A DNA stretch of 59,178 nt, counting the filler. It is 5 parts of 5 records of this genome, joined end to end, with 100 filler letters (N's around TTAATTAATTAA, not from the genome) between each part and the next. Parts side by side here need not be neighbours in the genome. Positions count along the whole stretch, not along the records: positions 17,600 to 22,895 come from SRR2962707_1708; 4 more parts are not named here. The stretch is one strand, 5' to 3'. Shown piece after piece: positions 9,053 through 30,538 of this stretch. Under the pieces are notes generated by a model. The model had not been told where the DNA came from. It ran no database searches and saw nothing but the letters and a program-made list of their open reading frames with translations. The first letter of the stretch is position 1. Each line of letters begins with the position of its first letter. Both the position numbers and the translations under genes were made by a program.

Positions 9053-10374
9053 GGTTGACTCCTGATCCTCTGCCTGACCTGTTGCAACAGCGCCACCATG
9101 GCCACGCATTGAGCGCGGTCGGCGGGGGTTTGCTCCAGGACTTGGGAAAGCGTGTGTTCGGGGATGTCCAGACGCTTGGCGGTCAACGCCAGGGCCTTGA
9201 CCGGGTCCGCGTGTTGCAGGGCGATGCGGCGCTGGACCTGATGGCGCAGGGACGCCAACAGCCGGTCGCTCTGGCCGGTGCGCCAATGGAAATGGCCAAT
9301 GGCCCGCAAATGACCGAGATAATCGGTGTGCTGGCGGGCCGGATCGCGCCACAAGGGCCCGCGGCGTGGCAGCCGCCGCCACAACCAGAATGCCAGCGCC
9401 AGCACCAGCGCCAGAATGAGGGGCCAGAATCGCTCCCACAGCCATATTGGCAGCGGCGGGATATCGATTCCACGTACGAACCATACCGGTCCCCGGGCAG
9501 TCAGGTCGGCCAGCAGCCGGGCGTGGTCAAAATGGTGCAGGTGCTGGTTGTCCCACAGTCCCAGCTCGGTAAGCACGGTGACGGTGCCGCCGCCCACCCG
9601 GAAACGCAGCAGGGTTTCGCCCGCCTCGTTGCTGGCGGAGGCTTCCAGTACCTGCGCCGGCTCGCCGGTGGAATCGTCTATCGGCAGGGGGGTGTAAAGC
9701 AGCCGTATCGGCGTCTCGCTCTGCAGCAGCCGTGGCTGGTCGCCCAGATTGTGGGTCGCCGCCGGCGGCTGCCAGTGTTGCGGTGCCTGACAGGTGAGGA
9801 CCTCGCATTGATGCAGCCGCTCCTCGGAGGCATCACCACTAAGGCAATACTCCAGAAACCAGTCTTCCATCGGCCGGAAACGGTCGAACAGCAGGGCCAG
9901 CGGGTCTTCTTCATTATCCTCGCGGGGCAGGGCCTCTACCTCCACCTCGAACAGGGACAGCAGCGAGTCCGGATCGCGGCGCCGCGTCTCGTTCTCGTCC
10001 TGTTCCGTTTCCTCCTCGGCGAACCAGCCGCTTGAGGGCGGCAGGTAGCGCGCGGCAATGATCAGATTGCCGCCATCGTGGACCCAGTTGAGCAGATCCA
10101 ATTGCCGCTCGTAGCCCAGTGAGCCGCGATCGCCATCGAGGATCAGAGTGGTATCGGTGTCCGGCAACGGAAACAGGGCGCGGGTGCTGAAGATACGGCG
10201 GCTGGGCCGTCTCCAGTGGTCCAACAGCTGTTGCGCGGCGAGGTACGGATTATTACGCACGCTGGCGTCCGGTGAGGCCGGCGCGGCGTATTGCACCGGT
10301 ACCGTGGCCCAGAAGTAGCCCGCCACCAGGGCCACCAGCAGCACCAGCACAAGATAGGGCCACCAGCGCTTCAT
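9049..10374 (-). CDS. DUF4350 domain membrane-anchored protein
   Basis: N-terminal TM, NPYLAAQQLL, LLNWVHDGGNLII, GGGTVTVLTELGLWDN...DHARLL, C-terminal TM. Canonical position in the MoxR cluster. Confidence 0.8.
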   Translation of the reverse strand: MKRWWPYLVLVLLVALVAGYFWATVPVQYAAPASPDASVRNNPYLAAQQLLDHWRRPSRRIFSTRALFPLPDTDTTLILDGDRGSLGYERQLDLLNWVHDGGNLIIAARYLPPSSGWFAEEETEQDENETRRRDPDSLLSLFEVEVEALPREDNEEDPLALLFDRFRPMEDWFLEYCLSGDASEERLHQCEVLTCQAPQHWQPPAATHNLGDQPRLLQSETPIRLLYTPLPIDDSTGEPAQVLEASASNEAGETLLRFRVGGGTVTVLTELGLWDNQHLHHFDHARLLADLTARGPVWFVRGIDIPPLPIWLWERFWPLILALVLALAFWLWRRLPRRGPLWRDPARQHTDYLGHLRAIGHFHWRTGQSDRLLASLRHQVQRRIALQHADPVKALALTAKRLDIPEHTLSQVLEQTPADRAQCVAMVALLQQVRQRIRSQP

Positions 10375-11864
10375 GATGCCGCCTCCGCGCTGCTCAATTG
10401 TTGCCAGCGCCGCAGCAGTTGGCGCGCCTGTTCCGGCGTCACCGGCTGATGGGCCCAGGCGATGCGGGTCCATTGCCGTATCAGGTCGCCGAGATACGTC
10501 ACTCTGGCATCGTCACCGAGCAGACGCCGGTAGGCATTCAGACAATCCCGCTCGGTGGCGCCGGGAGTGAGCCGGGTGGGGTGGCTCTGAAACAGGGCTA
10601 CCAGGGCGTGGCGCAGCAACAGCGCCAGCGCGGCGCGCACATCGTCACCGGCCAGCGCCTGCTCCACATCGCTACCCAGGTCGTCCGGCAAGGACTCGGC
10701 GCGGGTATCCAGCCCCGCCACGCTCACCGGCATCTCCATGGGCTTGGAACGTCCGCCTTTCAGAGCGCCGCGGTTGCGGAACAGGGCCAGCAGCAGGAAC
10801 ACGATCAGGGCCACCAGCACCAGACTGGCGAGGACCGTGACCAGCCGATCCGGCAGTTGCCAGTCACCGCCAGCGCGGTCGCGATCCGTATGGTCACTGT
10901 TGAACAACTGATCAAGCAGGCGGTTCCACCAACTGTCCTTGTCATCGCTGCGCAAGGAAGGGCGCAGTTGGCGCTCCTCGCGGATTTCCACCGGCATGAA
11001 CCGCTCGCCGGCCAGTAGTTCAATGGCCGCTTGTTTGGGGTCTTCCGGTTCGGTTTGTGCCGCTGGTGCCGGATGCGGCATCACGGTAAGCATCAGCAGC
11101 AGTGCCAGGGTGGTGACGCCGAGCACCCGGCGGCGCCGGCCGATGCGGTCCAGCCCCAATTGCAGATCCCAGCCTTCCAGCCAGGTGCGCTGATTAAGAT
11201 AAAGGGAAAAAGCGGCCGCTACGTAAAGCGGCTCGGTGATGGTCAGCGTCAGATACCAGGCCAGTGCCGCCAGACTCAGATGCAAATAACTCTGTTCGCT
11301 GAACCAGACGCTGAATTCCATGTTGAAGTCCCAGGGCACCAGCGTCAGCACCAGCACCATCAGACCGGTCAGCAGCACTTGTTCGAGGGTCACCATCAAC
11401 GCCATGAGCGTGCCGGCCCGCTGCCCGGGCGGACTCAGCAGCACCTGGATGCGGGACGAGGCCTGGGCGCCGCGGCAGCCTTCCAATTGCCAGATGCCGG
11501 TCAACAGACCCCGGAACGGGCTCAGCCGGCGCCAGGTCAACTGTCCGGCCAAGCCGTTCAGGCCATAGGCGGGGAAGCGCTTGAGCAGGGTCCAGGCGCC
11601 GGGGTAGTCACCGAACAGGGCATGGCTGAAGAAGGCCAGCAGCGGTCTTTCCCACAGTGGCTTCAACCACCAGAACAGCACTATCGGCCACAGGCTGTCC
11701 AGGCCAATGGACAGGGCGCTGAGCAGGGTATAGGGCAGCGCCGTGAACAGCAGCCATACCAGCGTGACCTGACGCCACCAGCGGCGATAGAAACGGGTGC
11801 CCAGATCCATGGCCTGCCAGGGGGAACGGGGCGCCAGGCGGGCGCGCAGGTTATTCAGATCCAT
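10371..11864 (-). CDS. DUF4129 domain membrane protein
   Basis: RSPWQAMDLG, WWLKPLWERPLL, LYLNQRTWLEGWDL membrane domain. C-terminal GATERDCL...WTRIAWAH. Confidence 0.8.
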   Translation of the reverse strand: MDLNNLRARLAPRSPWQAMDLGTRFYRRWWRQVTLVWLLFTALPYTLLSALSIGLDSLWPIVLFWWLKPLWERPLLAFFSHALFGDYPGAWTLLKRFPAYGLNGLAGQLTWRRLSPFRGLLTGIWQLEGCRGAQASSRIQVLLSPPGQRAGTLMALMVTLEQVLLTGLMVLVLTLVPWDFNMEFSVWFSEQSYLHLSLAALAWYLTLTITEPLYVAAAFSLYLNQRTWLEGWDLQLGLDRIGRRRRVLGVTTLALLLMLTVMPHPAPAAQTEPEDPKQAAIELLAGERFMPVEIREERQLRPSLRSDDKDSWWNRLLDQLFNSDHTDRDRAGGDWQLPDRLVTVLASLVLVALIVFLLLALFRNRGALKGGRSKPMEMPVSVAGLDTRAESLPDDLGSDVEQALAGDDVRAALALLLRHALVALFQSHPTRLTPGATERDCLNAYRRLLGDDARVTYLGDLIRQWTRIAWAHQPVTPEQARQLLRRWQQLSSAEAAS

Positions 11865-12816
11865 GACGCCCCGCGAACAGCAAATAGACGTAAAGCAGGG
11901 CCCAGCTGATACCGCCGACGGTGTATTTGATCTGGGCGTCCAATTCCCGGGAGGACCAGAACGCCTCGATCATCGCCGCCAGCACCAGCAACAGGAACAC
12001 GCCGTACATGACCGGCAGGGTTTCCCGCGCCGCCCGGCGCAAGGCATCCACCCGTCGCCAGGAGCCCGGCGCCACCAACGACCAGCCCAGGCGCAGCCCG
12101 GCGCCGCCGGCCAGCACGATGGCGGTCAGTTCCGGCGCCCCATGGGCAATGACGAAGGTGTAGAACGGCTGCCCGGCGCCCACCAGGGTCAGGTGGGCGG
12201 CGGCGGCGCCGAGGAAACTGCCGTTGAACAGCATCACCACCAGGGAGCCGATGCCGAACAACACCCCTCCAGCGAAGGTGCGGAAAGCGATGCCGACATT
12301 GTTGTAGATGTAGTAGCCGAACATCATCAGATCGTCGGCCCGATTGCGGTCGCTGCTGTCGCGCAGATCCGGGTGGTACATGTTTTCCAGATCGCTGACA
12401 CCATTGCCGTCCACCACGGTATGCACCAGCTCCGGGTCGTGCAGGATCATCGCCGCGACCAGTCCGGCGGAGAGCAGGAAGGTGAGGGCACTGATCAGAT
12501 GCCAGCGCCACATGGCGCGCACCGCGCGCGGGAAGTCACCGCGCAGGAACGCCGCCAACCTCGGCATCAACGGTGCCCGGTGACGGTAGAGTTGGCGATG
12601 GGCACGCAGCATCAGGTCGTTCAGGTAGTCCTGCAGCACCAGGCTGTAGCCCCGTTCCCGCGACAGCGCCAACTGATGGCACAGGTCCTGGTAGTCGCCA
12701 GTGAAGCGCGACAGGTCCACGTTCTTGGGCCGCTGCTTTTTCTCCAGCGCCGTCAGGCCCTGCTCAAGGCGATGCCACTGGGGTTGATAGCGCTGCTCGA
12801 ACCGGCTTTGTCTCAT
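11851..12816 (-). CDS. Stage II sporulation protein M (DUF95) family membrane protein
   Basis: MRQSRFE, YIYNNVGIAFRTFAGG, FVIAHGAPELTAIVLAGGAGLRLG, AAMIEAFWS. Confidence 0.88.
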   Translation of the reverse strand: MRQSRFEQRYQPQWHRLEQGLTALEKKQRPKNVDLSRFTGDYQDLCHQLALSRERGYSLVLQDYLNDLMLRAHRQLYRHRAPLMPRLAAFLRGDFPRAVRAMWRWHLISALTFLLSAGLVAAMILHDPELVHTVVDGNGVSDLENMYHPDLRDSSDRNRADDLMMFGYYIYNNVGIAFRTFAGGVLFGIGSLVVMLFNGSFLGAAAAHLTLVGAGQPFYTFVIAHGAPELTAIVLAGGAGLRLGWSLVAPGSWRRVDALRRAARETLPVMYGVFLLLVLAAMIEAFWSSRELDAQIKYTVGGISWALLYVYLLFAGRHGSE

Positions 12817-13476
12817 GTCGCCCCCAGTACGTGATTGACCACCCGGCGTAACCGGGCCAGGGCGGCATCATCGGTGAGTTCCGGGTAAGCCAGTCTGGCC
12901 AGTTCCCGTTGACGGTCCTCGGACAGCCGCAAGCCCCGGTCATGAAAGGCCAGCAGCACCAACTGATCGCCACGGTCCAGCGGCCAATCCGGTGGCTCTC
13001 CGCCGCTGTCACCGGGAGCGGGGCGGGTTTGCGGCGCGGGCACGTGAATCACCAGGGTGTCGGCGGCAAGATCGCCCAGCCGTTGTTGGCGAGAGGAAAC
13101 CAGCATCACCACGAAGCCGGTCAGGTAGGCGAACGGGAACAGATCAGCGGTGCGCAGCAGATTACGCACCAGCGAGCCGCTCAAGCCCACCGGAGCGCCG
13201 TTGCCGTGCACCACCGCCAGGCCCATGGCCGCCTTGCCCGGCGTGCGCCCCTGCCGGAACACCTCGAACAGCACCGGGTAAAACCATTCCAGCAGGAACA
13301 GCAGCAATAGATAAAGACCGGAACCGCCACGGCCCAGCAACATCAGGGGCGTGGCCACCACCATCAGAATCAGGGCACGGATCATCAAATCGATACCGTA
13401 GGCCATGCCGCGCGGCAGCGGCCCGGCCAGGGACAAGGTCAGCCGCGCGCCTTCCGGCGTATCAATATGCAGACGT

Positions 13477-13496
<20 letters not shown>
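12813..13496 (-). CDS. RDD family membrane protein
   Basis: IDTPEG, AGPLPRGMAYGID, GRTPGK, RNLLRTAD, QRLGDLAADTLV. Confidence 0.88.
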
Positions 13497-14764
<1,268 letters not shown>

Positions 14765-14951
14765 GGCCTCGCTCCCCTTGCGAAATAGTGGGCGGTGCCG
14801 TCCCCGTAATCGGCGGCGCACGCGAAAGCCCTCGATTGTACGGTAGTGGGCGGCGTTTGTGGGAGATTCCATGTGCCGCGGGAAGATGGTAGGGGACTCT
14901 TGCCTCTGCTTTTTCGTGGTGACCCGGTGAACGATGGGAAAAAAGAAACCG

Positions 14952-16265
14952 ATGACGGACAAGGACGAGACACCGCTGATTCCCTTTCGTGTGCGCATGC
15001 AGTCGCTGGTGGCGTTTCTGCGTTTACTGCGGCGCCAGTTCGTCGAGGACGGCTGCCTGTCATCGGCGGCGGCGCTCACCTATACCACCTTGTTCGCCAT
15101 CGTTCCGGTGATGACGGTGATGTTCACCGTGATATCGGCGATTCCGGCGCTCAATGAACGGGGATTGGCGATTCGTCAGTGGGCGTTTCAGTATTTCGTG
15201 CCGTCCGCCGGTGACCAGATTCTTCGCCACCTGGAAGGCTTCTCCCGGCAGGCCACCAACCTCACCGTTGTGGGCGCCTTGTTCCTGGTGGTGACCTCGG
15301 TGTTGATGTTGCGCACCATAGAGCAGTCCTTGAACCGGATCTGGCGTATCGGCAAGCCGCGCAAGGGGCTGACCAGCCTGATGATGTACTGGGCGGTGTT
15401 GTCTCTGGGCCCGATCCTGCTGGGCGCCGGCCTGGGTATCAGTTCCTATCTCACTTCCGTTTCCCTGGTTACCGATACCGTGGCGTATCTGGGGGGCGAC
15501 CGTTTCTGGCTGCGCGCCTTGCCGGTGGTGATGACCACCGGTTTACTCTCGCTGCTGTATATCGTGGTGCCGAACACCTCGGTGCCGATTCGCCAGGGCA
15601 TGCTCGGTGCCTTGCTGGCGGCCTTGGCGTTTGAACTGGCCAAGGGCGGGTTCGCGTTCTTCATCCGGCAGGTGCCCAGCTATCAGGTCATCTATGGTGC
15701 CTTCGCCATGGTGCCGGTGTTTCTGTTGTGGATTTATATTTCCTGGATCATCGTTCTCGCCGGCGCCGAGCTGGTGCGCGGCCTGGTGGTGTTCGAGGAG
15801 TTTCGGCGCCGGGTGCCGCGCACCCAGTCGCTGCTGCGATTGCTGTGCGTGCTGTGGACACGGCAACGTAACGGGGAAGTGCTACGTCATAATGAGGTGC
15901 AGCGCGTACTGCGGGAAGCCGGCGTCACCCATTGGGATGAATTCCGCAATCTGCTGGAGGATCGTGGATTGATGCGCCGCACCGACGAGGGCGGTTACAT
16001 GCTGAGCGGAGATTTACGTTCGTTGACCCTGGCGGAGCTGCTCGCCATGTTACCCTGGACCAGCGAGCAGCAACTGAGCGTCAATGCCCAGGGGCTGGAG
16101 CCCTGGGAAACGGTGCTCAAGGCACGCTGCGATCAGGCGCGCGAAGGCATGCGTGAACCCTTGTCGTTTCCTCTGGAAACGCTGTTCGAGAATCAGTTGC
16201 CGGAAACCGGCCCCGATCCCGACCTCAGTGATGAGGGGGCCGGTCATCGAAAAGAGGACGAATGA
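14952..16265 (+). CDS. yihY: YihY/virulence factor BrkB family inner membrane protein with C-terminal winged-helix-like extension
   Basis: AAALTYTTLFAIVP, IEQSLNRIW, YWAVLSLGP, YQVIYGAFAMVPVFLLWIYISWIIVLAGAE. Confidence 0.9.
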   Translation: MTDKDETPLIPFRVRMQSLVAFLRLLRRQFVEDGCLSSAAALTYTTLFAIVPVMTVMFTVISAIPALNERGLAIRQWAFQYFVPSAGDQILRHLEGFSRQATNLTVVGALFLVVTSVLMLRTIEQSLNRIWRIGKPRKGLTSLMMYWAVLSLGPILLGAGLGISSYLTSVSLVTDTVAYLGGDRFWLRALPVVMTTGLLSLLYIVVPNTSVPIRQGMLGALLAALAFELAKGGFAFFIRQVPSYQVIYGAFAMVPVFLLWIYISWIIVLAGAELVRGLVVFEEFRRRVPRTQSLLRLLCVLWTRQRNGEVLRHNEVQRVLREAGVTHWDEFRNLLEDRGLMRRTDEGGYMLSGDLRSLTLAELLAMLPWTSEQQLSVNAQGLEPWETVLKARCDQAREGMREPLSFPLETLFENQLPETGPDPDLSDEGAGHRKEDE

Positions 16266-16537
16266 TCATGATTGCCCGTCAAGTGGTGGTGCGCGGCCGC
16301 GTTCAGGGCGTGTATTTTCGTGCTAGCACCTGCGATGAAGCCCGCCGCCATGGCGTGGTGGGCTGGGTTCGCAATCTCGAGGACGGTGGCGTGGAAGCCT
16401 GGCTGGAGGGCAGCGAGGAGGCGGTCAGCGCCTTACTGGCCTGGATGCGCCGTGGCCCGACCCGCGCGCGGGTCACCGATGTGACGCAAACCGAACGCAG
16501 CCCGAGGGACTACGAGGACTTCGAGGTATCCCGGTGA
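16262..16537 (+). CDS. acyP: Acylphosphatase
   Basis: VRGRVQGVYFR, GWVRNLEDGGVE, GPTRARV. Confidence 0.93.
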   Translation: MIMIARQVVVRGRVQGVYFRASTCDEARRHGVVGWVRNLEDGGVEAWLEGSEEAVSALLAWMRRGPTRARVTDVTQTERSPRDYEDFEVSR

Positions 16538-17433
16538 AACAGGTTGAACTGGTGAATGGCGATCTGCGCTTTCCGGCGCTGCTGACCGGTGACGGCGAGC
16601 CGGTATTGTTGCTGCATGGCTTTCCGGATACCCATGAGAATTGGGCCGATATCATGCAGCGGCTGGCGCGCGCCGGCTATACCGCGGTGGCCCCGGCATT
16701 GCGCGGATACGCTCCCTCCTGTCAGCCGGGCAGTGGCGACTATGCGTTGACCGCCGCGCTGGAGGATCTGATGGCCTTCACCGATCAGTTGGGCGGGCGT
16801 TTGCACCTGGTCGGCCACGATTGGGGCGCGGTGCTGGGCTACCTGGCCTGCGCGCGCTACCCGGAAACCTTCAGCACTTTTTCCGCGCTGGCGATACCGC
16901 CTTTGAAGCGTTTACCCCAGGCGCTGCTGCGGGTGCCGGAGCAATTAGGGCTGAGTGCCTATATTCCGTTTTTCCAACTGCCACTGGCGGCGGAGACCTG
17001 GCTCAACCGCAACGACCTGGACGGTGTCGCGACACTGTGGCGGCGCTGGTCGCCGGGCTGGGAAGCCGGCCGCTATCTGGAGCAGGCCAAGCACACCCTG
17101 GCCCAACCCGGCGTCTTGTCCGCCGCCCTGGGCTGGTACCGGCACTTGCCCCGGCTATGGCGCCGGGACCTGCGTCAGGCCAGCAAGACACTGTTGGGAG
17201 AAACCCGGGTTCCGACCCAGGTGTTGCTCGGCGAAAGCGACGGCTGCATGAGCCCGCGCCTGCTGGACCACACCATCTACCCCGGTGACTTCCCGGAAGG
17301 CCTCTACGTCAAAACCCTGGCCGACGCCGGCCACTTCCTGCACCTGCAACAACCGGATGCCGTGGCGGAGCTTTTGGTGGAGCACATTCGAAAAGAAGAG
17401 AAAAAGCAGTTAAGAGTGAATAGGGAACAGTGA
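16534..17433 (+). CDS. Alpha/beta fold hydrolase (epoxide hydrolase-like)
   Basis: LLHGFPD, APALRGY, LVGHDWGA nucleophile motif, AGHFLH. The last codons come from a heptamer repeat array. Confidence 0.9.
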   Translation: MKQVELVNGDLRFPALLTGDGEPVLLLHGFPDTHENWADIMQRLARAGYTAVAPALRGYAPSCQPGSGDYALTAALEDLMAFTDQLGGRLHLVGHDWGAVLGYLACARYPETFSTFSALAIPPLKRLPQALLRVPEQLGLSAYIPFFQLPLAAETWLNRNDLDGVATLWRRWSPGWEAGRYLEQAKHTLAQPGVLSAALGWYRHLPRLWRRDLRQASKTLLGETRVPTQVLLGESDGCMSPRLLDHTIYPGDFPEGLYVKTLADAGHFLHLQQPDAVAELLVEHIRKEEKKQLRVNREQ

Positions 17434-17444
17434 ATAGTTAACAG
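17403..17444 (+). repeat. Third heptamer tandem array
   Basis: AAAGCA-GTTAAGA-GTGAATA-GGGAACA-GTGAATA-GTTAACA-G. The 26 nt at 17419-17444 are identical to 6544-6569. Confidence 0.8.
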
Positions 17445-17476
17445 AAAAAAACCAAAACAGGTGACCTTTAGCCACT

Positions 17477-17499
17477 GTGGGAGCTTGCCTGCAAGCGAA
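17477..17499 (+). repeat. REP unit at contig end
   Basis: GTGGGAGCTTGCCTGCAAGCGAA with palindrome GCTTGC-CT-GCAAGC. Same family as 1591-1659. Confidence 0.75.
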
Positions 17500-17599
17500 N
17501 NNNNNNNNNNNNNNNNNNNNNNNNNNNNNNNNNNNNNNNNNNNTTAATTAATTAANNNNNNNNNNNNNNNNNNNNNNNNNNNNNNNNNNNNNNNNNNNN
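17500..17599. other. Artificial contig spacer
   Basis: 44 N + TTAATTAATTAA (stops in all six frames) + 44 N. Confidence 0.99.
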
Positions 17600-17838
17600 T
17601 TCGTGAGCGAGCGAGCGAGTGAGTGAGTGCACAACGCGCTTTCATCCTATTCACCTTTTTCTCCGTAAATCCGCGTGAAACCGCCGTTGTTGCGCGGGAG
17701 GGCACTCTTGACTCAACGGCGGTGGTCCTCGAAAACTGGCCAAAAAACTCGGACAAAAGCGGAACGAATTGGAAACTGGGAAGCTGGCTGCGTGAACCGG
17801 GGACCCCTTCGTTCGACGGGTTCTGTCGTGCTGCTGAG

Positions 17839-19459
17839 ATGAGCGGAGAGACCGTCACGCAGGTTGTGGCACAGCCAGCTTCGGGGGGCGAAATTGCCCC
17901 GCGTGCAAGGCGGCGTTTGCCGGAACGTGGACGAAGCGGTGCCTCTGTTTCAGCCGATGAAGACGTTCAAGCTTTCAACGACGTTGTCGCGCAGGCTTTT
18001 CCTACAGGCGAGCGTGTAGTGCGGATCGTCAAGTGAGTGGAGCAGAATTCCTGCGCCCGCCAAGTGTTGTCGGGTTGGAGTTGGGGTGCTTCTTATTCGT
18101 GTTGTGTGCCTCGCCGCATTTGCTTTGAGTGCTTGATGATTGTGTTCATGATGAGTGGTGCACATGTGCTTGTTGGTTGACATTTCTGGACGCTGACGGC
18201 GTATTCAACACTGCAACTTACCGGTAGATGCGTTCCAACAGATGACATCCCAACAGTTGTCGCAACTCCTTTGCCCAAGGTTCGCAAAAGTCAAATAGGA
18301 GCTGTGTGTTCGCTACAAGGCGCTACGCCCTCGCCTTTGTCTGTGTTTGAGAAATGGCAACTGCAGACTGACGCGATCTATCTGCTGTGTATGATCTCAG
18401 GTACAGAAGTTGCTCAAGATTTTGAGCGCTGTCTCGGAGCTGGAAAACGATGTTACAACGTCGAGTGGGGCTGCCATTGCAAAGATATTGGGGCTTCTGA
18501 ATCGTGTCACCGCCACTCGTATCAACCAAAAGGTGCCCTGTTGTTTGATAACATGGTGTGTCGTGCCTCAGCTGTGAGATCATCACATTGATTTCGCGCT
18601 TTCGAACTTGCTGTCTGCACGAAAATAGCTGAAGTGGGAAGTTAACCAGGACCAAGAGAAAGAAATAGACAACGTCGTGCTGGACGAAAACCAACAGAAT
18701 GCTTTTGACAAGTTAGTCCAGCTCAGCGATTCCAAACTACTTGACAAAATACGGTCGGTTTTGTGTTCAAGCGAGTGCTATTGATGAAAAGCAGCACAAT
18801 TTCAAACAGGCTCACCAATTTTAGTGAACCATACGTCGCAGGATTGCTTTGGATGACTTTGGAGTCAGACAGAGTGAGGTCGCGAACACCATTGGTGTGT
18901 CGCAAGGTCGTATTTCTCAACTCCTTACTGGGAAGGCCAATCTGCCAGAAAAGTGCAAACAAGATTTGGTCAGTTCATGCGGCATTGTTCGGCAGTATGC
19001 TTCCAAGTGCAAAATAATGGCAAGTGACGAAAAAAATGAACCTTCGAGGTCATCATTGCGTGCAGGCATTGTGGTTCGTTCGAGCAAAGGCTCGGCAAAA
19101 ATCTGAGTCGTCGCGTGGGTCTCGAAGCCTCTCGGCGAAGCGAAAGCGAGCCATCGAATGGAAGCATTACCCGTCGGCGACAGCCCTGCTTGCGGAACAT
19201 TTTGATTCAACGAGTCGGTACCCCGGCGCACAGGTTTGTTCGTCGACAACGTGTTGATACTCCAGGCCCGAAAAAAGGGTGTCTGGTGACTCATGGGTTG
19301 GTTGACCACTTGTAGGCTCTTAAGCAATTAACTGCAGAGGTGAACGATGCGATTCAGACAGAAAAGCCGGGTGCGGGATTGAAGGTAATTCCTCGTATTG
19401 TTGCAACTTGGTTTTCCAATCGGCGGAAGCGGTTGCGGCTCTTCGGGCGAGGACCGTAG
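17839..19459 (+). CDS. Spliced eukaryotic homeodomain transcription factor, HNF1/HMBOX1-like architecture (313 aa, 7 exons)
   Basis: Exons 17839-18032, 18228-18279, 18401-18532, 18629-18753, 18842-18968, 19066-19233, 19316-19459. All introns are GT-AG and in phase (942 nt total). Product contains DKIRIALDDFGVRQSEVANTIGVSQGRISQLLTGKANLPEKCKQDLALWF and KRKRAIEW...LLAEHFDSTSRYPGAQALKQLTAEVNDAIQTEKPGAGLKVIPRIVATWFSNRRKR. Exons 1-3 are less certain than exons 4-7. Confidence 0.8.
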
Positions 19460-19514
19460 GCGATTGTCTCTCTTCATTTCGCTTGCAACAAGCCAGGTGA
19501 CATTCCAACTTCAG

Positions 19515-19540
19515 TTTATAATTTATAATTTATAATAATT
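19515..19540. promoter_or_regulatory. AT-rich (TTTATAA)x3 tract between convergent genes, candidate 3'-end/polyadenylation signal
   Basis: TTTATAATTTATAATTTATAATAATT in the 155-nt gap between stops at 19459 and 19615. TTATAA is palindromic. Confidence 0.35.
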
Positions 19541-19614
19541 CCTCCACGAATGAAAGACTCGCCTTGAAAACGTGCAGGAGCTCATGGCTCGGAGAGAGGG
19601 ACTTCAGCCTCCAT

Positions 19615-22542
19615 CTATTCAGGTGCTGCCAATGCATCACTGCTTCGATCAAGAACTGCATGGCCATCTGTGCCAATGTTCACTCGAATGCCGTTGGCTG
19701 CTGCAAAGTCGTTGAGCTCTTCCTCCATTTGAGTGCGAAGTAGGTTCCTAGCAGGACAATCACGCATTGACGTCAAACCCACTTCTGACAACCCGCCACT
19801 CAAACCCATCACTTTTACCCCATCTCAACGTAACAGAACCAACTCACAAGTAGGTCGCAAGATCTCGGTATTCGGTGTCAACTTTCGTCTTTTCCTTAGG
19901 GTCAACTTCGTATAATCGTGCCACACGTCGCATCGCATTTTCGCGCTCTTGACGAAGTTCCTCGTACCTGCAGCAATGCATTGACGTCAACAAACATGGC
20001 GATGGCCATGCACACTGTGCGCCTCGTGCACTTGTTCAAATGCAAGTACGCACTGCTTCAAAATTAACTCCTCGGCTGTGCTAGAAACGACCGTACATGC
20101 AGCTGTGAAGCTGTCGATGAGTTGTGCGGCAGCACTGAACTCGAAGGACGAAAAAATTGGAAGGCTAAACGCAAGAAATTCTGAACGATCGAGAAAGCCA
20201 TTTTGATTCGTGTCCGCCCGCTCAATTTGGTGTTTTACAACCAAAGCCGTGGCGTCTGAGCCAGAAACTAGCAACAGCGCAAAAACACAGCCAGAACCAA
20301 CCAATTTTCACACGCTCCGGTTTTGATGCCGTGACCATTTTTCGAACATGCTTGCGACCACGCACCAGACTTGTACATTCGCTTCATATCAACCATGTCA
20401 AGCATACCACGCTTCTGAGTGTCGGCTGCGTCAAAAAGCCGGCATAGCTTTTGCTCAAGCTGCTTCGACTCTGCTTCGGGGTCATGCAACAGTAGTTTTC
20501 TGAAAGTTTCGTCGCTGCCTCCCCGCTGTTGAAACGGACACCTGCGCCGACATGCAAAGGGTGATTCGTAGGTAGAGGTATCAATTACAGCCAAAAATTC
20601 CAATGGCATGTTCAATAGGCAATGTAACAAACACTGAAACGCACACACGGCAATGGGCATCAAGATTTTGATGCGGCATAAAAACGCCGCAACCAAAATC
20701 GCACATCACTCGACGCATTGGACAGTCCAGTTGCTGATGCATCAGCATCATCGGTCCTACGAAGCACCAGCCGTGCTGTGGTGGGTTAGGGGGGCAAGCA
20801 AAGGATTGCGAGCGTTAAATACCTTAAATTCAGAACAGTGTCAGACGTTTGCAGCGACGAACCGGTTCGGAATAGTTTGGTGCAGCCAATGTTGGTGCAA
20901 ATCCAGGACATTAAGACACCTCGCACATTCACTGGCACGTAAAGGCACCCAATGTTGTTGGCTCCAAGTTTTCGCCTGTTTGCAGAGCGAGTGAGTCCAC
21001 AACACACCAACAGAAAACGCAACATCTGTCAATTGTTAACAATGCGTATCACTGCAAGAAAACACTGTAATGCAATTTGAGAAAAAACTTACAGATCCTC
21101 CTCCACCACAGATTTGTGTACAAGCTCTTTTTCAACCCTTTCGGCTTCACGTGCAGCCGCTTCCCTTGCCTGCGAAAAAGTCAAAGCCCATTGTTTCGTC
21201 AAGAAAAAAGGCAAAGCCACACACTCACTGGCAAGCGATACATTGCTCGATATGACGCGACGACGCACCTCCGCCCGTTCTTGCAACTCTTTTTCTAGCT
21301 TTGCCTTTTTAGCTTCTGCAGCAACGCGAATTCGGTCAGCCTCAATTCGTAAACTCTCTTTCTTGAGAGCGGATTCGATTTGCTGTTTCAATCTGATTGC
21401 AGCAGTTACTGCCTCATGATCAAAACTTATGTGGTGCAACGCCAACTCAATTTTCCGACCAAGCCACTGAACCTGTATGTTTCAAGCATTGCAAGGTTGA
21501 ATAAAACACGCTCAATTCATACGCAGCACTACCTGATGTGAGTCCGATGACAAGGTTGTCCGCGAGTGATTCATCACAATCCCAGCCCACGAACAACTCA
21601 CCGTCGCCTCTAGCTCAGGATAGTTGGCAGTATCAATTGACTTTTCAGACTCTGGTCCAGAATCAGACTCTTTTTCTTCATATGCTTCAGCATCTTCGGG
21701 CGAAACTTCTTGTGCACTTGGCTTGTACCGTATTGCTTTACCGGCCTTCGCAGTAGCTAGTTGCAAACGCTCAACTGCCTCGACACGCTCAAGGATGTTC
21801 TCGTGGCGCATTGAGGCACAGTGGTCACATACGTCGAAGTCGCACAAGCGACATCCAAACATGTAACACATGTTTCCATCGTACCTTTCCAAGAAACGAG
21901 AAGCCATCCAGACAAAAGAAAGTAAAAAAACCACAGGACACGCGTCGACGCCGAAAGCAGGGTGCTTCTTTGACAGCGCACGTTTTTTGTTCACGCCCTT
22001 CGCAGTCATCGCAGGTGAACTCGCGACGGTCACAGGAGAACTCAGAGAGAGGATGCTCGGATTTGCAGGTGGCTTTGACACGTCGAAGAAGAGCTTCTGC
22101 GCACCACCACTCGGAGACTCCGTCGTTGTGCTCAACCAAAATTGAGCGGTCTCTCTTGTCGCACTCCACCACTTTGCCAAGGCGCCCAACTAGTTTTTCG
22201 TGCTTGCTCGAAAATATCCACTTGCGTGCTTCGATTGCGCGCTGAGCCTCCTCCAGGGGCTTTATTTGAACAGTCATTGGGTCGAAACATTCCGAAAACC
22301 TGTTCGTCAAAACGAGAAGCGTCATCGCACTGTCGAAACAGTCACGAACCCACACAGCCACAAGGACCGAAACGAGAACAGAGCAGGAAGAAACACACAA
22401 GCAAGGCAAGATTCGCTTACTTGAAGTTCCGTTGCCCATACTTCGTAATATCCCCTTCCTCCGCACTTTTCAAAAGTTGTCCCATTGCAGCGAGTTTCTG
22501 CAGAAGTGCAGGAGCACTCCCCGCGAGGGCAGAGTTGCCCAT
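19615..22542 (-). CDS. Spliced eukaryotic multidomain protein: Mib-SH3-like, Cys/His Zn finger, coiled coil, TRAF-type Zn fingers, EF-hand pair (623 aa, 11 exons)
   Basis: Exons 22542-22421, 22299-21982, 21884-21602, 21472-21269, 21169-21093, 20975-20863, 20756-20645, 20541-20366, 20267-20054, 19967-19848, 19747-19615. All GT-AG and in phase (1872 nt total). Motifs: MGNS start, KLVGRLGKVVECDKRDRSILVEH...WW, CKSEHPL..CDDC..CRLCDFDVCDHC, CTNIGC..HQQLDCPMRRVMCDFGC..H...CP, DTQKRGMLDMVD, DTNQNGFLDRSE. Confidence 0.78.
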
Positions 22543-22895
22543 CGCACCCCCGCTGAGCTACTCTTCCCGCAGGTTCTGTTGACAGTGTGGGTGTGGCTCG
22601 CACATCACGACTTTGCTTTCTCGGCGTGTCACGCTACTCGCAAGTTCTCAGATCCAGCAGCACAACGTTCCGCCAAGGACGCAAACTCAACCTATCGCCA
22701 GCAACTGGCTTGCTGCAGACACAAGCAACGAAGAAGAAGGCCCACAGCGGGCACACAAAAAAATACGACTAAAAAACAAGAAAGCTCGACAGCAACTGTG
22801 CAACCGAACTCGTGAACTTTCAGCGACAACACGAGATAATATAATTGATTATAATATCCCCTTCGTAGCACACTTCATCACCCACATCCCAGACA

Positions 22896-22995
22896 NNNNN
22901 NNNNNNNNNNNNNNNNNNNNNNNNNNNNNNNNNNNNNNNTTAATTAATTAANNNNNNNNNNNNNNNNNNNNNNNNNNNNNNNNNNNNNNNNNNNN
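22896..22995. other. Artificial contig spacer
   Basis: 44 N + TTAATTAATTAA + 44 N. Confidence 0.99.
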
Positions 22996-23193
22996 GATTT
23001 CCTCGTCGGATTCCACGATCAGATCATTGTCGATGCCGATTTCACCGAATTCGTTGACAATCACTGCATATCGTTTGCCATGCGGTTCGGAGAGAATGCG
23101 GTTGAGCAGGGTGGTCTTGCCGGCACCGAGGTAGCCGGTCAGAACGGTCACGGGGATGGGGGCCACGGGGGTGGTAACTGGCGCTTCGCTCAT
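22996..23193 (-). CDS. CobW/COG0523 family GTPase, N-terminal fragment (truncated by contig end)
   Basis: [35 protein letters not shown]. Confidence 0.9.
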
Positions 23194-23256
23194 CGGATCT
23201 CTCTGTCAGGAAGGTGTGATTGATCCCATATAGGCGTTTCCCGCTGCTTATGCCAC

Positions 23257-24228
23257 TCACAAGGACATGATGTGATGGGCCACAGCCTCGCCTGATTGAT
23301 GCGCGGCCTCGGCACGGCCGCCGGTGCACCAGTCGCCACAGGCAAACAGCGTGTCTTGCTGATTGCCCAGAAAGGGTTGATCCAGCGGCTTTTCCACCAG
23401 GGCGTAGAGCCAGCGATGGACTTCGCAATGGATGGGAGCAGGCAGATGCTGACCCAGGCCAGTCTGTTGCCTCATTGCCTGGAGCATCGAAGTCTTGACT
23501 GAATTGCGATCACTTTCGATGTGGGAGCGGCTCCATTGCGGCGTCGCGTGCATGACAAAGGTCTCGCCGGTCCGGCCCGGTTTTGAGCCGTTGCGCGCAA
23601 TCAGGGCGAGGACCTCCCCATCCTGTCCACGGATCAGATCCGGGACATCTGCCAGGGGACGATCAAACGCCAGCATGGCAGACCAGCAGGGCGCCATGCT
23701 GACAGTGCGCAATTGGTTGAATACCGGAGCGAGCGGTTCAAGCAGCGCAAGCGCTTGTGGTGCAGGAATGGCTGCGACCACTCGGGAAGCCCGGTAAACC
23801 TGCCCGTCACTATCGGCGCCCTGTGTGTGAACCAGGAATGCCTGATCCTGTTTGGCAATGTGCGTTGCCCTTGTCTGGTAGGTGATGTCCAGCCCCTTGG
23901 CCAAGGCTTTGCCAATGGCCGACATTCCGGGGTGGCCGACCCACCATGTGTGGGCACTGTCCTTGCCATCGGGATTCCATGCCGCCAGATCGCCGCTTTG
24001 AGACAATTGGTCGATGAGTTTGGAAAAACCTGCTGTTCTGTTGGTCAGGTATTGCGCGCCGTGGTCGAAATTTCCAGCCTCGCTGCGGCGGGTCGACAGC
24101 CTGCCGCCGGCGGATCTGGATTTCTCGATTACCACGACCTTGCCCGGCCGGCCGAACAATTCCCGCGCCAGTGTCAAACCCGCCAGTCCGGCACCTATGA
24201 TCAGGGTATCGATTTCAATCATGCTCAA
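23257..24228 (-). CDS. NAD(P)/FAD-dependent oxidoreductase (renalase-like)
   Basis: IIGAGLAG, EKSRSAGGRLSTRR, FDHGAQY, HRWLYA, CGDWC.GGRAEAAHQSG. Confidence 0.88.
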   Translation of the reverse strand: MSMIEIDTLIIGAGLAGLTLARELFGRPGKVVVIEKSRSAGGRLSTRRSEAGNFDHGAQYLTNRTAGFSKLIDQLSQSGDLAAWNPDGKDSAHTWWVGHPGMSAIGKALAKGLDITYQTRATHIAKQDQAFLVHTQGADSDGQVYRASRVVAAIPAPQALALLEPLAPVFNQLRTVSMAPCWSAMLAFDRPLADVPDLIRGQDGEVLALIARNGSKPGRTGETFVMHATPQWSRSHIESDRNSVKTSMLQAMRQQTGLGQHLPAPIHCEVHRWLYALVEKPLDQPFLGNQQDTLFACGDWCTGGRAEAAHQSGEAVAHHIMSL

Positions 24229-24356
24229 ATGTCCTGAAGGCCTGTGTTTGCGATGGGCTTGGTTCAGAAACTAGAAACATCCTCAGCAATTCAAGCGCCA
24301 GGCTCAGACTGTTGGCTGCGGGAGGGTGATCTGTCGCTGCCTTGATGGCCCGCTGA

Positions 24357-25100
24357 TCAGGTCAGTTCGTCGACATCGAAGGCCGCCATGTCGACGAGCA
24401 GCTCGGTCAGCCCTCGCAGGGAGTGGGCCAGGATTGCCTCACCCTTGCTGGCGGAGGCCTGGCTTGCCTTGCCGGCGGCGCCGTTCGAATTGAGGTCCGA
24501 CATCTTCCAGCCGAAGGCATGCGGGCCGTAGGCGCGCAAATGGGTGAAGCGCCGGGCGTATTCTTCCTGCCGGGAGGGAAAGTCCTGAAGCGCGTCCGGA
24601 CGAACCAGATCAGGGCGTATCGCCAGCATCACCGAGGTTTCGATGTCGCCAGCATGAATGTCGAACGCCTTGTCCGCGGGCGCGACCAGATCAGTGGGGA
24701 CGCCGAAGCGGGTCCAGCTTGTTGCAACGACAAGCATGTTGAAGCGAACTCTGGCCTCGGTTGCGACAATCGTCAGCAATGGCGAATTTCCACCATGCGC
24801 GTTGAGCAGCATAAGGCGGGGTATTCCGCGATCGGCACAGCCAGCCGCGATATCAATCCAGCGATTGACGGCTTCCTCAAAGCGAAGCGTTCGCGTACCT
24901 GACACATCCATGTGCTCGATAGAATAACCGGTCGATTCGACGGGCAGCAATTCGGTTCGAATGCCATCGGGAGCAGCGCGGCAAAGCCGTTGTGCCACCT
25001 CCTGAGCGATCAGAGCATCGGTCTCGAACGGCAGATGCGGGCCGTGCTGCTCGTGCGCGCCCAATGGGAGAATGGCTATGGGGACAGGTTGTGTGGGCAT
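24357..25100 (-). CDS. Creatininase family amidohydrolase
   Basis: LPLGAHEQHGPHLPFETD, YSIEH, NAHGGN, HAGDIETS. Start placed at ATG 25100. Confidence 0.9.
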   Translation of the reverse strand: MPTQPVPIAILPLGAHEQHGPHLPFETDALIAQEVAQRLCRAAPDGIRTELLPVESTGYSIEHMDVSGTRTLRFEEAVNRWIDIAAGCADRGIPRLMLLNAHGGNSPLLTIVATEARVRFNMLVVATSWTRFGVPTDLVAPADKAFDIHAGDIETSVMLAIRPDLVRPDALQDFPSRQEEYARRFTHLRAYGPHAFGWKMSDLNSNGAAGKASQASASKGEAILAHSLRGLTELLVDMAAFDVDELT

Positions 25101-25179
25101 AGGGTGGTTATTCCGCTCGGGCCAAATTAGAGTCCGAACCCTAGGGTGAGGGAACAAAGGCCGCAAGAAGGAGCTGTCC

Positions 25180-25752
25180 GTGTCCGCCAAAAAGAAGACC
25201 AAGACAAAAAAGTCCAGGAAGGGTGATCATGCAGAAACGCTCTTGATGATCACTCAGGTGGCGCGAAATGCGAGAACGGCACTGTCGCGGCATTTGCTGG
25301 ATCTGGGGCTTTACGCTGGCCAGGATGGTGTCATGCTGGCTCTGGACGCTGATGACGGGCAAACGCCCGGCGCGATCGCGGCGTCGCTCGGCGTGAAGGC
25401 TCCGACTGTCACCAAGACCATCGGGCGGCTTGCGGCGCAAGGGTTCCTGCGGCGGGAAGGGTCGCCGGATGACGGGCGGATGATGCTGGTGTTTCTGACC
25501 GAGGCTGGGCGGGACCAGATCAAGTCAATCCGCAAATCGCAACGCAAGACCGGGAAGGCAGCTTTTGCCGGTTTGAAGAAAAAGGAGGTGGCTGAGCTTC
25601 TGGCGCTTCTTTCGACGGTGGATGCGAATATTTCCGCGAGCCTTCGTGTCGAAGGAGGGGCCGTGACTGCCAAGGGTGCTGCAACGGACAGTCCCGAGCC
25701 GCCGGAAGAGCTGTCTGCTGTCGCAGACGATACAGCAATCGGCGCTGACTGA
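25180..25752 (+). CDS. MarR family transcriptional regulator
   Basis: GLYAGQDGVML, LGVKAPTVTKTIGRLAAQGFLRR, DDGR...VFLTEAG. Confidence 0.88.
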   Translation: MSAKKKTKTKKSRKGDHAETLLMITQVARNARTALSRHLLDLGLYAGQDGVMLALDADDGQTPGAIAASLGVKAPTVTKTIGRLAAQGFLRREGSPDDGRMMLVFLTEAGRDQIKSIRKSQRKTGKAAFAGLKKKEVAELLALLSTVDANISASLRVEGGAVTAKGAATDSPEPPEELSAVADDTAIGAD

Positions 25753-25756
25753 TTGC

Positions 25757-25779
25757 TAGTTCGGTTTAAACCTTTTAGA
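25757..25779. promoter_or_regulatory. Candidate operator upstream of LacI-family gene
   Basis: Palindrome GGTTTAAACC (25763-25772) in an AT-rich intergenic gap about 60 nt before the lacI-family start. Confidence 0.3.
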
Positions 25780-25831
25780 TTTGTTGAATTGTTGAATCGG
25801 GGCTCAGGGCCCCGTTATAGGGAACCGCAAT

Positions 25832-26860
25832 TTGGCGCAGAAGATAAAGCTTTCGACTATTGCCGAGGCATTGGGCCTTTCAACAGCAACAGTTTCCCTT
25901 GCATTGCGTGACAGCCCGTTGGTGGCGGATGTAACCCGCGACCGCATCAAGGAAAAAGCCATCGAACTTGGCTATATCTACAACCGGCGCGCAGCTTCGC
26001 TCAGGACATCGCGGTCAGGCATCATCGGGGTGGTCGTGCATGACATCATGAACCCGTTCTATGCCGAAATCCTCAAGTCGATCGAGACCGAACTCGATCG
26101 CAGCCGGCAGACCTTCATTCTCTCCAATCATTACGACTCGGTCGACAAGCAGCGCAACTTCATCGAGACGTTGCTGCAGCTGGGCGGAGACGGGGTGATC
26201 ATGTCGCCGGCCATCGGAACGCCTGCGTCCGACATCCGCTTGGCCGAAGACAATGGCATGCCTGCGATCCTGATTGCCCGGTCCGTGCCGGAGATTGATG
26301 TGCCGACTTTCCGTGGCGATGATGCCTATGGGACCGCACTGGCGACCAATCATCTGATTAGCCTCGGGCACACCCGTATCGCCATGATCGGCGGCACTGA
26401 CCATACCTCAACGGGACGGGATCGATATGCCGGTTACGCGGAAGCGCTCAAGAAGGCCGGTATTGCTGTTGATCCGGCGTTGAGAATTCCGGGGCCGCGG
26501 ACCAAGCAAAGCGGCTTTGAAGCGGCGGTGAATTTTCTCGCCAATCCGCTCAAGCCGACTGCAGCGGTATGTTGGAACGATCTGGTGGCCATTGGCCTGA
26601 TGAGTGGCATCGCGCGAGCGGGTCTTGTACCCGGAAAGGATATTTCAGTGACTGGTTATGACGATCTTGAGGAAGCGGCAATTGCAACGCCAGCCTTGAC
26701 CACAGTCTGGAACGGGCAATCCGAGGTCGGACGTTTGGCGGCACGGGCGCTGCTCGACAAGCTCAATGGCTCGAGTGAAGCTGACGGGCTGCATCTGATC
26801 AAACCTGAAATGCGGATCAGGCAGTCGACCATGCCACTTAACCCGGGAGCAGGCCGATGA
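25832..26860 (+). CDS. LacI family transcriptional regulator
   Basis: HTH LSTIAEALGLSTATVSLAL, hinge YNRRAASLRT, NPFY, CWNDLVAIG, DISVTGYDD, PALTTV. TTG start. Confidence 0.93.
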   Translation: MAQKIKLSTIAEALGLSTATVSLALRDSPLVADVTRDRIKEKAIELGYIYNRRAASLRTSRSGIIGVVVHDIMNPFYAEILKSIETELDRSRQTFILSNHYDSVDKQRNFIETLLQLGGDGVIMSPAIGTPASDIRLAEDNGMPAILIARSVPEIDVPTFRGDDAYGTALATNHLISLGHTRIAMIGGTDHTSTGRDRYAGYAEALKKAGIAVDPALRIPGPRTKQSGFEAAVNFLANPLKPTAAVCWNDLVAIGLMSGIARAGLVPGKDISVTGYDDLEEAAIATPALTTVWNGQSEVGRLAARALLDKLNGSSEADGLHLIKPEMRIRQSTMPLNPGAGR

Positions 26861-27831
26861 GTGCTCAACGCGCCGCCGTGCTTATTGCCGGCAAGGTTCA
26901 CGCCCGGGTCCGGGAACGGGTCGACGCGGAATTCGAGGCTGTCTCCATCGAGGCTGCCGATGCCGGGCTGATGAGTGAAGAGACCCGCAACCGGATCAGG
27001 GGCATGGCCTCGGGGACACGGATTTCGGCGGAATTCATCGATTCCCTGCCAAACCTCGAAGTGATTGCCAATTTTGGCGTCGGCTATGACGCCGTTGATG
27101 CAGCCCATGCGGCAACGCGCAAAGTCATGGTCACCAACACGCCGGACGTCCTGTCTGATGAAGTTGCGGACACAACCGTCGGGCTGTTGCTCAACACGTT
27201 GCGTGAACTGCCGAAAGCCGAAGCCTATCTTCGTGCGGGACGTTGGGCGGCCGAGGGGGCTTACCCGCTGACATCTCTTTCACTCAGGGGACGGACGATC
27301 GGCATTTTCGGTCTCGGGCGCATCGGCCTGGCCATTGCCCGGCGTCTGGAAGCATTCGGCTTGCCCATTCATTATCACACCAGAACCAAACGGTCTGACG
27401 TCGTCTACACCTGGCACCCACGTCTGATTGATATGGCTTCAGCAGTCGACACTCTGATTGTGATCGTGCCTGGTGGTGCGGCGACGGAGAAGGCCGTCAA
27501 CGCAGACATTCTGAATGCGCTTGGATCGCAGGGCGTCTTGATCAATGTCGGGCGTGGATCAACGGTTGATGAGCCAGCACTGATCGCCGCACTCGCAGAC
27601 CATACAATTGCTGCTGCCGGGCTTGATGTCTTTGCGGATGAACCGAATGTGCCGCAAGCGCTGATGGATTTGCCCAACGCCTGCCTGCTGCCACATGTGG
27701 CTTCGGCGTCGGTCTCCACACGTAACGCCATGGCTGATCTGGTGGTGGACAATCTGATCGAATGGCTGGCAGGCCGTCCGGCGGTGACCGCGGTTCCGGA
27801 ATGCGCGGGCTTTGACCGGAAGCCGAGCTAG
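26857..27831 (+). CDS. D-2-hydroxyacid dehydrogenase (glyoxylate/hydroxypyruvate reductase-like)
   Basis: FGVGYDAVD, VTNTPDVL, GIFGLGRIG, INVGRGSTVDE, AGLDVFADEP, LLPHVAS. Confidence 0.92.
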   Translation: MSAQRAAVLIAGKVHARVRERVDAEFEAVSIEAADAGLMSEETRNRIRGMASGTRISAEFIDSLPNLEVIANFGVGYDAVDAAHAATRKVMVTNTPDVLSDEVADTTVGLLLNTLRELPKAEAYLRAGRWAAEGAYPLTSLSLRGRTIGIFGLGRIGLAIARRLEAFGLPIHYHTRTKRSDVVYTWHPRLIDMASAVDTLIVIVPGGAATEKAVNADILNALGSQGVLINVGRGSTVDEPALIAALADHTIAAAGLDVFADEPNVPQALMDLPNACLLPHVASASVSTRNAMADLVVDNLIEWLAGRPAVTAVPECAGFDRKPS

Positions 27832-27860
27832 AGGCTGCGCACCCCGGAGCCATGGAGTTT

Positions 27861-29413: not shown

Positions 29414-30538
<1,125 letters not shown>

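Follow-up and report, generated by a model that had tools for sequence, protein, structure and literature searches.

The window analysed here is a 59,178-base stretch of DNA, and its second contig (SRR2962707_1708) holds a homeobox gene on the plus strand. Seven exons splice in frame into 942 nucleotides (nt) that encode 313 amino acids (aa) and a stop. The product carries two DNA-binding folds, a POU-like helix-turn-helix (HTH) domain and, C-terminal to it, an atypical homeodomain; this order of domains is a feature of the HNF class of homeobox genes (HNF1A/B and HMBOX1). The gene is real, spliced and eukaryotic, and it belongs to a small family that is also seen as fragments in environmental eukaryotes. 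With modest confidence, we read it as a divergent relative of the HNF class, nearer to HMBOX1 than to HNF1. The gene is laid out as follows.

17670-17838 (+): 5' untranslated region as covered by a spliced contig; the true transcript start may lie upstream
17839-18032 (+): exon 1, coding part, aa 1-65, without a recognised domain
18228-18279 (+): exon 2, aa 65-82
18401-18532 (+): exon 3, aa 83-126, hydrophobic-periodic, without a match to any family; that it serves dimerisation would be guesswork
18629-18753 (+): exon 4, aa 127-168, its 3' end encoding POU-like helix 1; exon end common to the relative P0008
18842-18968 (+): exon 5, aa 168-210, HTH core with recognition helix SQGRISQ; exon end common to the relatives P0003 and P0008
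19066-19233 (+): exon 6, aa 211-266, with the last POU-like helix (to about 19089), a linker, and the N-terminal arm, helix 1 and loop 1 of the homeodomain
about 19090-19149 (+): basic Ser/Arg linker with KRKR, within exon 6
19316-19459 (+): exon 7, aa 267-313 and the stop codon (19457-19459), with homeodomain helix 2, an extra loop and helix 3 (WFSNRRKR)
19340-19378 (+): insert of 13 residues that separates homeodomain helix 2 from helix 3, aa 275-287 as numbered from the Pfam match
19460-19510 (+): 3' untranslated region to the reach of the spliced contig, from its record length of 1161 against the exon sum

All six introns have GT..AG borders and measure, in order, 195, 121, 96, 88, 97 and 82 nt. 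One 1161-nt contig of the public run X2 extends from 17670 to about 19510 and skips six of the six predicted introns at the predicted borders. In the DNA run X1, the likely source of the window contig, none of the six splice joints occurs, and a colinear 1490-nt contig runs across 17772-19262. X2 bears the same organism label as X1 and comes from another study and year; its RNA status is presumed and not on record. It contains 53% of the sampled words of contig 2, and its two spliced contigs, one for the homeobox gene and one for the adjacent gene, total 64% of that contig. Since the contigs of both genes lack introns in X2 and bear them in X1, the simplest reading is that X2 is a transcriptome, and the homeobox gene is most likely expressed. 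The start codon at 17839 is the earliest in-frame ATG downstream of a stop that ends at 17622.

The first-pass annotation had proposed this same model from the letters alone, with seven GT-AG exons joined in phase to 313 aa, and had quoted peptides that include a homeodomain Trp at 19409. We reproduced the model, the peptides are present in the sequence (the Trp codon of helix 3 is 19409-19411), and the contig from X2, presumed to be RNA, crosses every junction. It had also remarked that the open reading frame (ORF) track misses the homeobox, which the ORF list bears out: over this gene the list holds only an 85-aa, TTG-start fragment (18849-19106) across the HTH exon, and the homeobox exon is missing because its 47 aa fall below the 60-aa limit.

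We characterised the homeodomain from exon 7. Pfam Homeodomain (PF00046) matches exon 7 alone with E 0.01 and 16 bits, aligning exon residues 22-41 with profile positions 37-56; the cut-off of 22.9 bits is unreachable for a piece that holds only those positions. The alignment fixes W48-F49-S50-N51-R52-R53, and helix 3, WFSNRRKR, can be read straight from the sequence. In the PDB, exon 7 matches six sequences at E<=10, every one of them a homeodomain. On this evidence exon 7 belongs to the homeodomain superfamily. Counted from the Pfam anchor, the domain has 13 additional residues between helices 2 and 3, one additional residue ahead of the loop 1 Y-P, and a Ser as residue 50, precisely as first annotated; its total length is 74 residues (about aa 235-310), split by intron 6. 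Helix 1 falls in exon 6, where an L..HF and Y-P pattern can be read. Folded alone, exon 7 gives a helix at residues 2-15, an 11-residue loop and a helix at 27-42, with a predicted local distance difference test score (pLDDT) of 68. The peptides of exons 6 and 7 modelled as a two-chain complex scored 0.01 against a mark of 0.34, and a search of the ESM Atlas with exon 7 returned nothing above 0.77. A PF00046 profile search of a complete bacterial genome (G001, see below) and 14 control genomes found no homeodomain.

The long insert between helices 2 and 3 is shared with the HNF class: 13 residues are present here, 15 in HMBOX1 and 21 in HNF1A/B (PMC2211742). Homeodomain loop insertions, including those in loop 2, have many independent origins (PMC4901127), so the insert by itself proves little. 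HMMER aligns the KPG of the extra loop and the hydrophobic positions that follow with the KPG of HMBOX1. Chains of HMBOX1 (2cuf and 4j19) are second and fourth among the six PDB matches of exon 7, with non-significant E-values of 0.66-0.84.

The POU-like domain lies at about aa 150-218, N-terminal to the homeodomain in the spliced product, and is encoded by exons 4-6. An exhaustive phmmer search with exon 5 against 1.84 billion representatives returned 15 hits with E<=0.001, of which three are clusters of metagenome fragments matched in a single stretch, namely P0003 (58% identity), P0008 (55%) and P0011 (51%), and the last of these clusters includes the members P0016 and P0017. Because the matches of P0003 and P0008 stop exactly at the end of exon 5, and that of P0008 also shares the end of exon 4, we read these two as exons of intron-bearing relatives. 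The P0011 group stays open through the last helix and includes a conserved Trp. Across six family sequences 15 positions are invariant; they concentrate in the recognition helix, whose Q-G-R-[IV]-S-Q is identical in all six. With the whole spliced domain, the relatives reach 40-54 bits per domain versus 14-30 for bacterial and phage ORFs.

The other twelve phmmer hits (P0001, P0002, P0004-P0007, P0009, P0010 and P0012-P0015) were set aside. They are long, bacterial-looking proteins matched in 2-7 stretches each, most of them with tandem HTH repeats. Their scores reflect summed repeats instead of kinship, and short HTH queries are easily misled in this way. No full-length homologue and no animal HNF-class protein occurred among the 15 hits. 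Three word-based protein searches also came up empty, in which exon 6 was compared with longer proteins and exon 7 both with longer ones and with ones close to its own length, and the longer ORFs used as single queries against metagenome and genome contigs recovered no relative. Contig scans with the family alignment A1 gave 4 metagenome and 19 bacterial loci, and alignment A2 gave 2 loci on viral contigs; all are bacterial or phage HTH sequences, and none of these 25 fetched loci has a WF.NRR-type motif.

To place the first domain, we compared exon 5 and its relatives with Pfam profiles. Exon 5 matches HTH_3 with E 0.001 and 19.6 bits and HNF-1_N (PF04814) with E 0.12 and 13.3 bits. HNF-1_N also matches four of four relatives (E 0.003-0.024, 15.5-18.5 bits) over profile positions 118-172 of 175. 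Positions 1-117 hold the dimerisation domain; they have no match in exons 1-4 or in the relatives, and aa 1-125 (exons 1-3) match no Pfam family. As controls we took ten bacterial and phage HTH ORFs from the homologue-scan loci that share the IG..QGR.SQ core. HNF-1_N is listed at E<=10 for none of these ten look-alikes versus five of five in the eukaryotic set; the five eukaryotic sequences are related, so this contrast counts as one signal and not five. The contrast is not a by-product of the shared IG..QGR.SQ motif. The HTH_3 scores go the other way, with 39-49.5 bits in six of the ten look-alikes versus 14.9-25.7 in the eukaryotic set. Against the HTH_3 cut-off of 23 bits, exon 5 (19.6), P0003 (14.9) and P0017 (22.6) stay below, and P0008 (25.7) and P0011 (25.4) lie above. 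Pfam CUT is matched by P0011 and P0017 (E 0.003-0.03) and not listed for exon 5; this signal is less specific because three of the ten bacterial controls reach CUT as well (E 0.11-0.3). A family profile run against the PDB gave 27 matches, among them HNF1B (E 0.22) and HNF1A (E 0.36-0.38) and no POU chain. By sequence, HNF1 comes nearest to the first domain, with no single result significant alone.

We modelled the relative P0016 with AlphaFold and the family alignment, which gave four helices at a pLDDT of 84.3, about 95 over the domain. The Foldseek rows for this model consist only of lambda-repressor-fold proteins, with HNF-1A highest by query-normalised TM-score (0.68, root-mean-square deviation (rmsd) 1.5). 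In the VIA second look at P0016, 20 of the 21 top entries were POU-specific, HNF1 or ONECUT domains (Z 8.7-9.8). POU-specific domains top that list (9pfp, Z 9.8; also OCT4, Brn2 and Oct-1), and sequence identity in the structural alignments is 19-20% for HNF1 (19% over 67-68 residues of HNF1A) versus 6-12% for POU chains. A Foldseek-independent search ranked the N-domain of phage Mu MuB first (Z 9.5), followed at ranks 2-4 by OCT4 (8.9), HNF-6 (8.9) and HNF-1A (8.8). Judged from the predicted structure, the first domain clearly falls within the lambda-repressor fold.

Taken together, these data suggest HNF-class kinship; the homology is inferred, and it is the best-supported reading of the gene. 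The first-pass annotation had assigned it to the HNF1/HMBOX1 class: its gene structure, its pairing of two domains and its unusual homeodomain stand, and the HNF affinity itself is weakly supported, with HNF-1_N below threshold and HMBOX1 at the E-values given above. Several results weigh against the kinship. In the first domain, HNF-1_N is only ninth on exon 5, behind HTH_3, Sigma70_r4 and HTH_31 as the best; generic bacterial-type HTH models outscore it there and in all but one of the four relatives. No HNF-1_N match reaches the gathering score of 29.7 bits (best 18.5), even for the one-piece domain of P0017; these scans covered single exons or fragments, and two thirds of the profile represent regions absent from this protein. 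Exon 5 has 13 PDB matches at E<=10, and none of them is eukaryotic: they comprise bacterial and phage HTH proteins, engineered variants of these, and one designed protein, with 434 repressor and HigA best. Bacterial HTH proteins (434 repressor, HigA and similar) also outrank HNF1 for the family profile. Foldseek gave no match to the P0016 model at E<=0.001, and POU, HNF1, CUT and the best bacterial regulators lie within about 1 Z of each other, tied within the stated error. In the second domain, the top PDB match of exon 7 is an unrelated homeodomain (2da4, E 0.096), exon 6 alone, with homeodomain helix 1, has no Pfam match and no PDB match at E<=10, and position 50 is Ser here versus Ala in the aligned HMBOX1 (WFANRRK). 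Ala50 is a defining, or perhaps merely a usual, trait of the HNF class. Finally, no relative with both domains was recovered; relatives are seen as fragments only.

In the main rival explanation, the gene would act like an HNF or POU factor without specific ancestry in common with the HNF class: a protist lineage would have independently fused a Cro/C1-type (XRE-like) HTH, which may have come from bacteria, to a homeodomain that was already atypical. The Pfam ranking and the exclusively non-eukaryotic PDB matches of exon 5 fit such a convergent fusion. So do its ESM Atlas neighbours, which are phage and bacterial HTH_3 clusters at 0.89-0.91, the bacterial HTH segments that are 50-68% identical to it over 19-30 residues, and the repeated origin of homeodomain loop insertions (PMC4901127). 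The bacterial similarity, however, ends at about exon residue 32, and over the whole domain the bacterial and phage ORFs stay at 14-30 bits versus the higher scores of the relatives. HNF-1_N separates the eukaryotic set from all ten look-alikes; POU, HNF1 and ONECUT domains, which are the eukaryotic partners of homeodomains, fill 20 of the 21 top structural rows; and the KPG of the extra loop is aligned in HMBOX1 as well. We consider a convergent fusion less likely than HNF-class kinship, and yet a serious rival to it.

A divergent POU-class factor, akin to the atypical POU genes of two choanoflagellates, is a far less probable explanation. POU-specific domains do lead the second structural look, and POU genes are known outside animals (PMC11564870, PMC6792448). 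Pfam Pou (PF00157), however, is absent at E<=10 from the matches of exon 5 and of all four relatives, with the proviso that HMMER filters drop many weak matches; no POU chain appears among the 27 PDB matches of the family profile, and the structural-alignment identity of POU chains is well below that of HNF1. POU homeodomains are typical 60-residue domains, and the one found here has 14 extra residues.

Like HMBOX1/HOT1, which binds telomeric DNA, the protein has a POU-like domain before an atypical homeodomain with a long insert (15 residues there, 13 here), and the two also align in the insert's KPG and in helix 3 (WF.NRRK). It differs in Ser50 in place of Ala, in an insert gapped by 4 residues in the HMMER alignment, in the non-significant PDB match and sub-threshold HNF-1_N, in 125 N-terminal aa without known relatives, and in a host that is probably not an animal. 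With HNF1A/HNF1B it shares the bipartite layout; positions 118-172 of HNF-1_N are weakly matched, below the cut-off, and the P0016 domain superposes on HNF1A with Z 9.6 and rmsd 2.1-2.6. The HNF1 insert is longer, nothing here matches the first 117 positions of HNF-1_N, and the protein is much shorter, without a C-terminal activation region. The POU class is alike in joining a lambda-repressor-fold domain to a homeodomain on a flexible linker, with Z-scores tied with HNF1, and unlike in homeodomain length and Pfam profile. That a bipartite homeobox class regarded as 'animal' can occur in unicellular relatives is already illustrated by the atypical choanoflagellate POU factors (PMC11564870, PMC6792448). 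In ONECUT/CUT proteins the CUT domain has the same fold (Z 8.9-9.2, 17-19% identity) and two of our relatives match its profile, whereas exon 5 does not. Cro/C1 (XRE) repressors share the HTH core, including HTH_3 scores of 25.4-25.7 bits in two relatives; unlike this family, they reach 39-49.5 bits with HTH_3, have no HNF-1_N match, and lack introns and a homeodomain.

The product is most likely a nuclear, sequence-specific DNA-binding factor of 313 aa with a bipartite binding region. A basic Ser/Arg linker of about 16-20 residues ties the POU-like domain to the homeodomain, and its KRKR is a likely nuclear-import signal. In the manner of HNF1 and POU proteins, two adjacent half-sites of one DNA may be read, one by the first domain's recognition helix and the other by helix 3 (WFSNRRKR) of the homeodomain. 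The invariance of the recognition helix across the relatives argues for a conserved half-site, and Ser50, as opposed to the Ala50 of the HNF class, argues for a different specificity of the homeodomain. The N-terminal 125 aa might carry dimerisation, partner or regulatory contacts, which is conjecture.

The remainder of the window gives the setting of the gene. The window consists of five contigs chained by N44-TTAATTAATTAA-N44 spacers and derives from more than one organism; its parts and the neighbouring gene are listed here.

1-17499: contig 1, G+C 63.5%
17500-17599, 22896-22995, 35984-36083 and 47466-47565: spacers
17600-22895: contig 2, 5296 bases, with the homeobox gene inside, G+C 49.8%
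19543-22823 (-): tail-to-tail neighbour gene, 11 exons, 623 aa by model, starting Met-Gly, spliced in a 2225-nt contig of X2
22996-35983: contig 3, G+C 58.1%
36084-47465: contig 4, G+C 52.1%
47566-59178: contig 5, G+C 59.7%

Contig 1 is 97-98% identical to the complete 4.4-Mb bacterial genome G001, and the long ORFs on contigs 3 and 5 encode a TRAP-transporter DctM subunit and a CNNM/CorC protein. At least three of the five contigs (1, 3 and 5) are bacterial, and the other two look eukaryotic. Long ORFs are missing from contig 2, and nothing in G001 matches it. The window mixes organisms, and the practical lesson is therefore that context arguments across the spacers are invalid; the context of the gene is its own 5.3-kb contig alone.

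Within that contig the neighbour gene shows how densely genes are packed. The 2225-nt contig of X2 skips ten of its introns (CT..AC on the strand given), the tenth of which is placed by the model at 22300-22420, and single exons of it match zf-TRAF (E 1e-4) and EF-hand (E 8e-4), both below threshold. The transcript contigs of the homeobox gene and its neighbour converge to within 32 nt of each other (19510 and 19543). Six introns interrupt the 942 coding nt of the former and 10 the roughly 1.9 kb of the latter, with lengths of 82-195 nt throughout. No marker gene was found on the two eukaryote-like contigs, and Pfam scans of 12 further frames and exon pieces gave only the sub-threshold zf-TRAF and EF-hand matches. 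The host is a gene-dense, intron-rich eukaryote and probably not an animal; intron density, packing, bacterial co-contigs and environmental relatives fit a microbial eukaryote in non-axenic culture. The earlier suggestion of a protist had drawn on short introns, tight packing and the types of neighbouring genes. Intron sizes and packing on the 5.3-kb contig do bear on the host, whereas the neighbouring gene types fall away, as the window includes bacterial contigs.

A last rival is that the gene is an ordinary HMBOX1/HNF1 orthologue from a small animal in the sample, for which one can cite that the HNF class, in the literature consulted, is reported from animals only (PMC6125248, PMC5560861). 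We regard this as highly improbable because the exhaustive HTH-exon search returned no animal HMBOX1 or HNF1 among its 15 hits; word-based searches with exons 6 and 7 found nothing, HNF-1_N stays far under its cut-off, and the assembly includes bacterial contigs, as in a non-axenic microbial culture. The 32 nt between convergent transcript contigs and the short introns speak against it too, such gene density being rare in animals.

Other observations concern the sample and the remaining contigs. Run X3, which has another organism label, contains low-depth contigs (151-232 nt) that match parts of contig 2, for example 19032-19182, at 96-100% identity, and therefore the same or a very close eukaryote occurs in another sample; one of them carries C>T at 19067, the second base of exon 6. 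Contig 2 starts with a GAGC/GAGT microsatellite (17600-17776) whose summed contig depth in X1 is 2212 versus about 37 elsewhere; this repeat is common in the X1 sample and probably ended the assembly there. On contig 4, a 1543-aa open frame (38915-43546, +) with short Gly/Tyr/Asn-rich repeats and a coiled-coil-like tail has no Pfam match; the frame upstream of it, 379 aa long, begins much like a signal peptide and carries repeats of that kind, and the rest of the contig has broken ORFs, resembling an intron-bearing genome. Rfam and tRNA scans of the whole window found none. Among the loci from the contig scans, those of alphaproteobacteria (L005-L013, L015 and L016, matched mostly at about 8001-8090) hold the bacterial segments closest to exon 5, which form the N-terminus of single 428-496-aa ORFs with a large conserved C-terminal part. 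This apparent HTH-enzyme fusion seems to be conserved across several Hyphomicrobiales-type genomes; its C-terminal part may resemble riboflavin-synthesis enzymes.

POU, HNF, CUT, SIX and LIM, homeobox classes that carry another DNA-binding domain besides the homeodomain, serve as markers of the animal regulatory toolkit. In the available portions of the literature, the HNF class is reported from Nematostella, Placozoa and Amphimedon (PMC6125248) and is listed among novel animal transcription factor architectures (PMC5560861). The portions of three surveys of unicellular relatives that we consulted (PMC6792448, PMC7147346 and PMC6040629) do not mention HNF, and we found no literature report of an HNF-class gene outside animals, a result on which supplementary trees, for example the all-holozoan homeodomain tree of PMC11564870, may bear. 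Origins have moved before: POU has been taken back to choanoflagellates (PMC6792448, PMC11564870), LIM-homeobox and POU genes are already traced to unicellular relatives (PMC5560861, PMC6792448, PMC11564870), and a derivation of HNF from POU has been suggested (PMC4901127).

A bolder reading is that true sisters of the HNF class exist in a unicellular, intron-rich eukaryote and in several environmental eukaryotes, so that the layout predates animals and maybe arose outside Holozoa; we entertain this tentatively, as plausible rather than probable. Were the fusion convergent instead, the gene would be a clean example of the same bipartite DNA reader built twice. An expressed HNF-like gene in a non-animal, if true, would bear on when the arrangement of a POU-like domain and a homeodomain arose, and on whether HNF came from POU or both go back to an older gene of protists. 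With only 313 aa, its product would also be a small protein in which the DNA specificity of an early form could be measured. If the sister reading is true, then after Sox and POU a further 'animal-only' transcription factor class would have a protist root, here with Ser50 and probably another DNA target.

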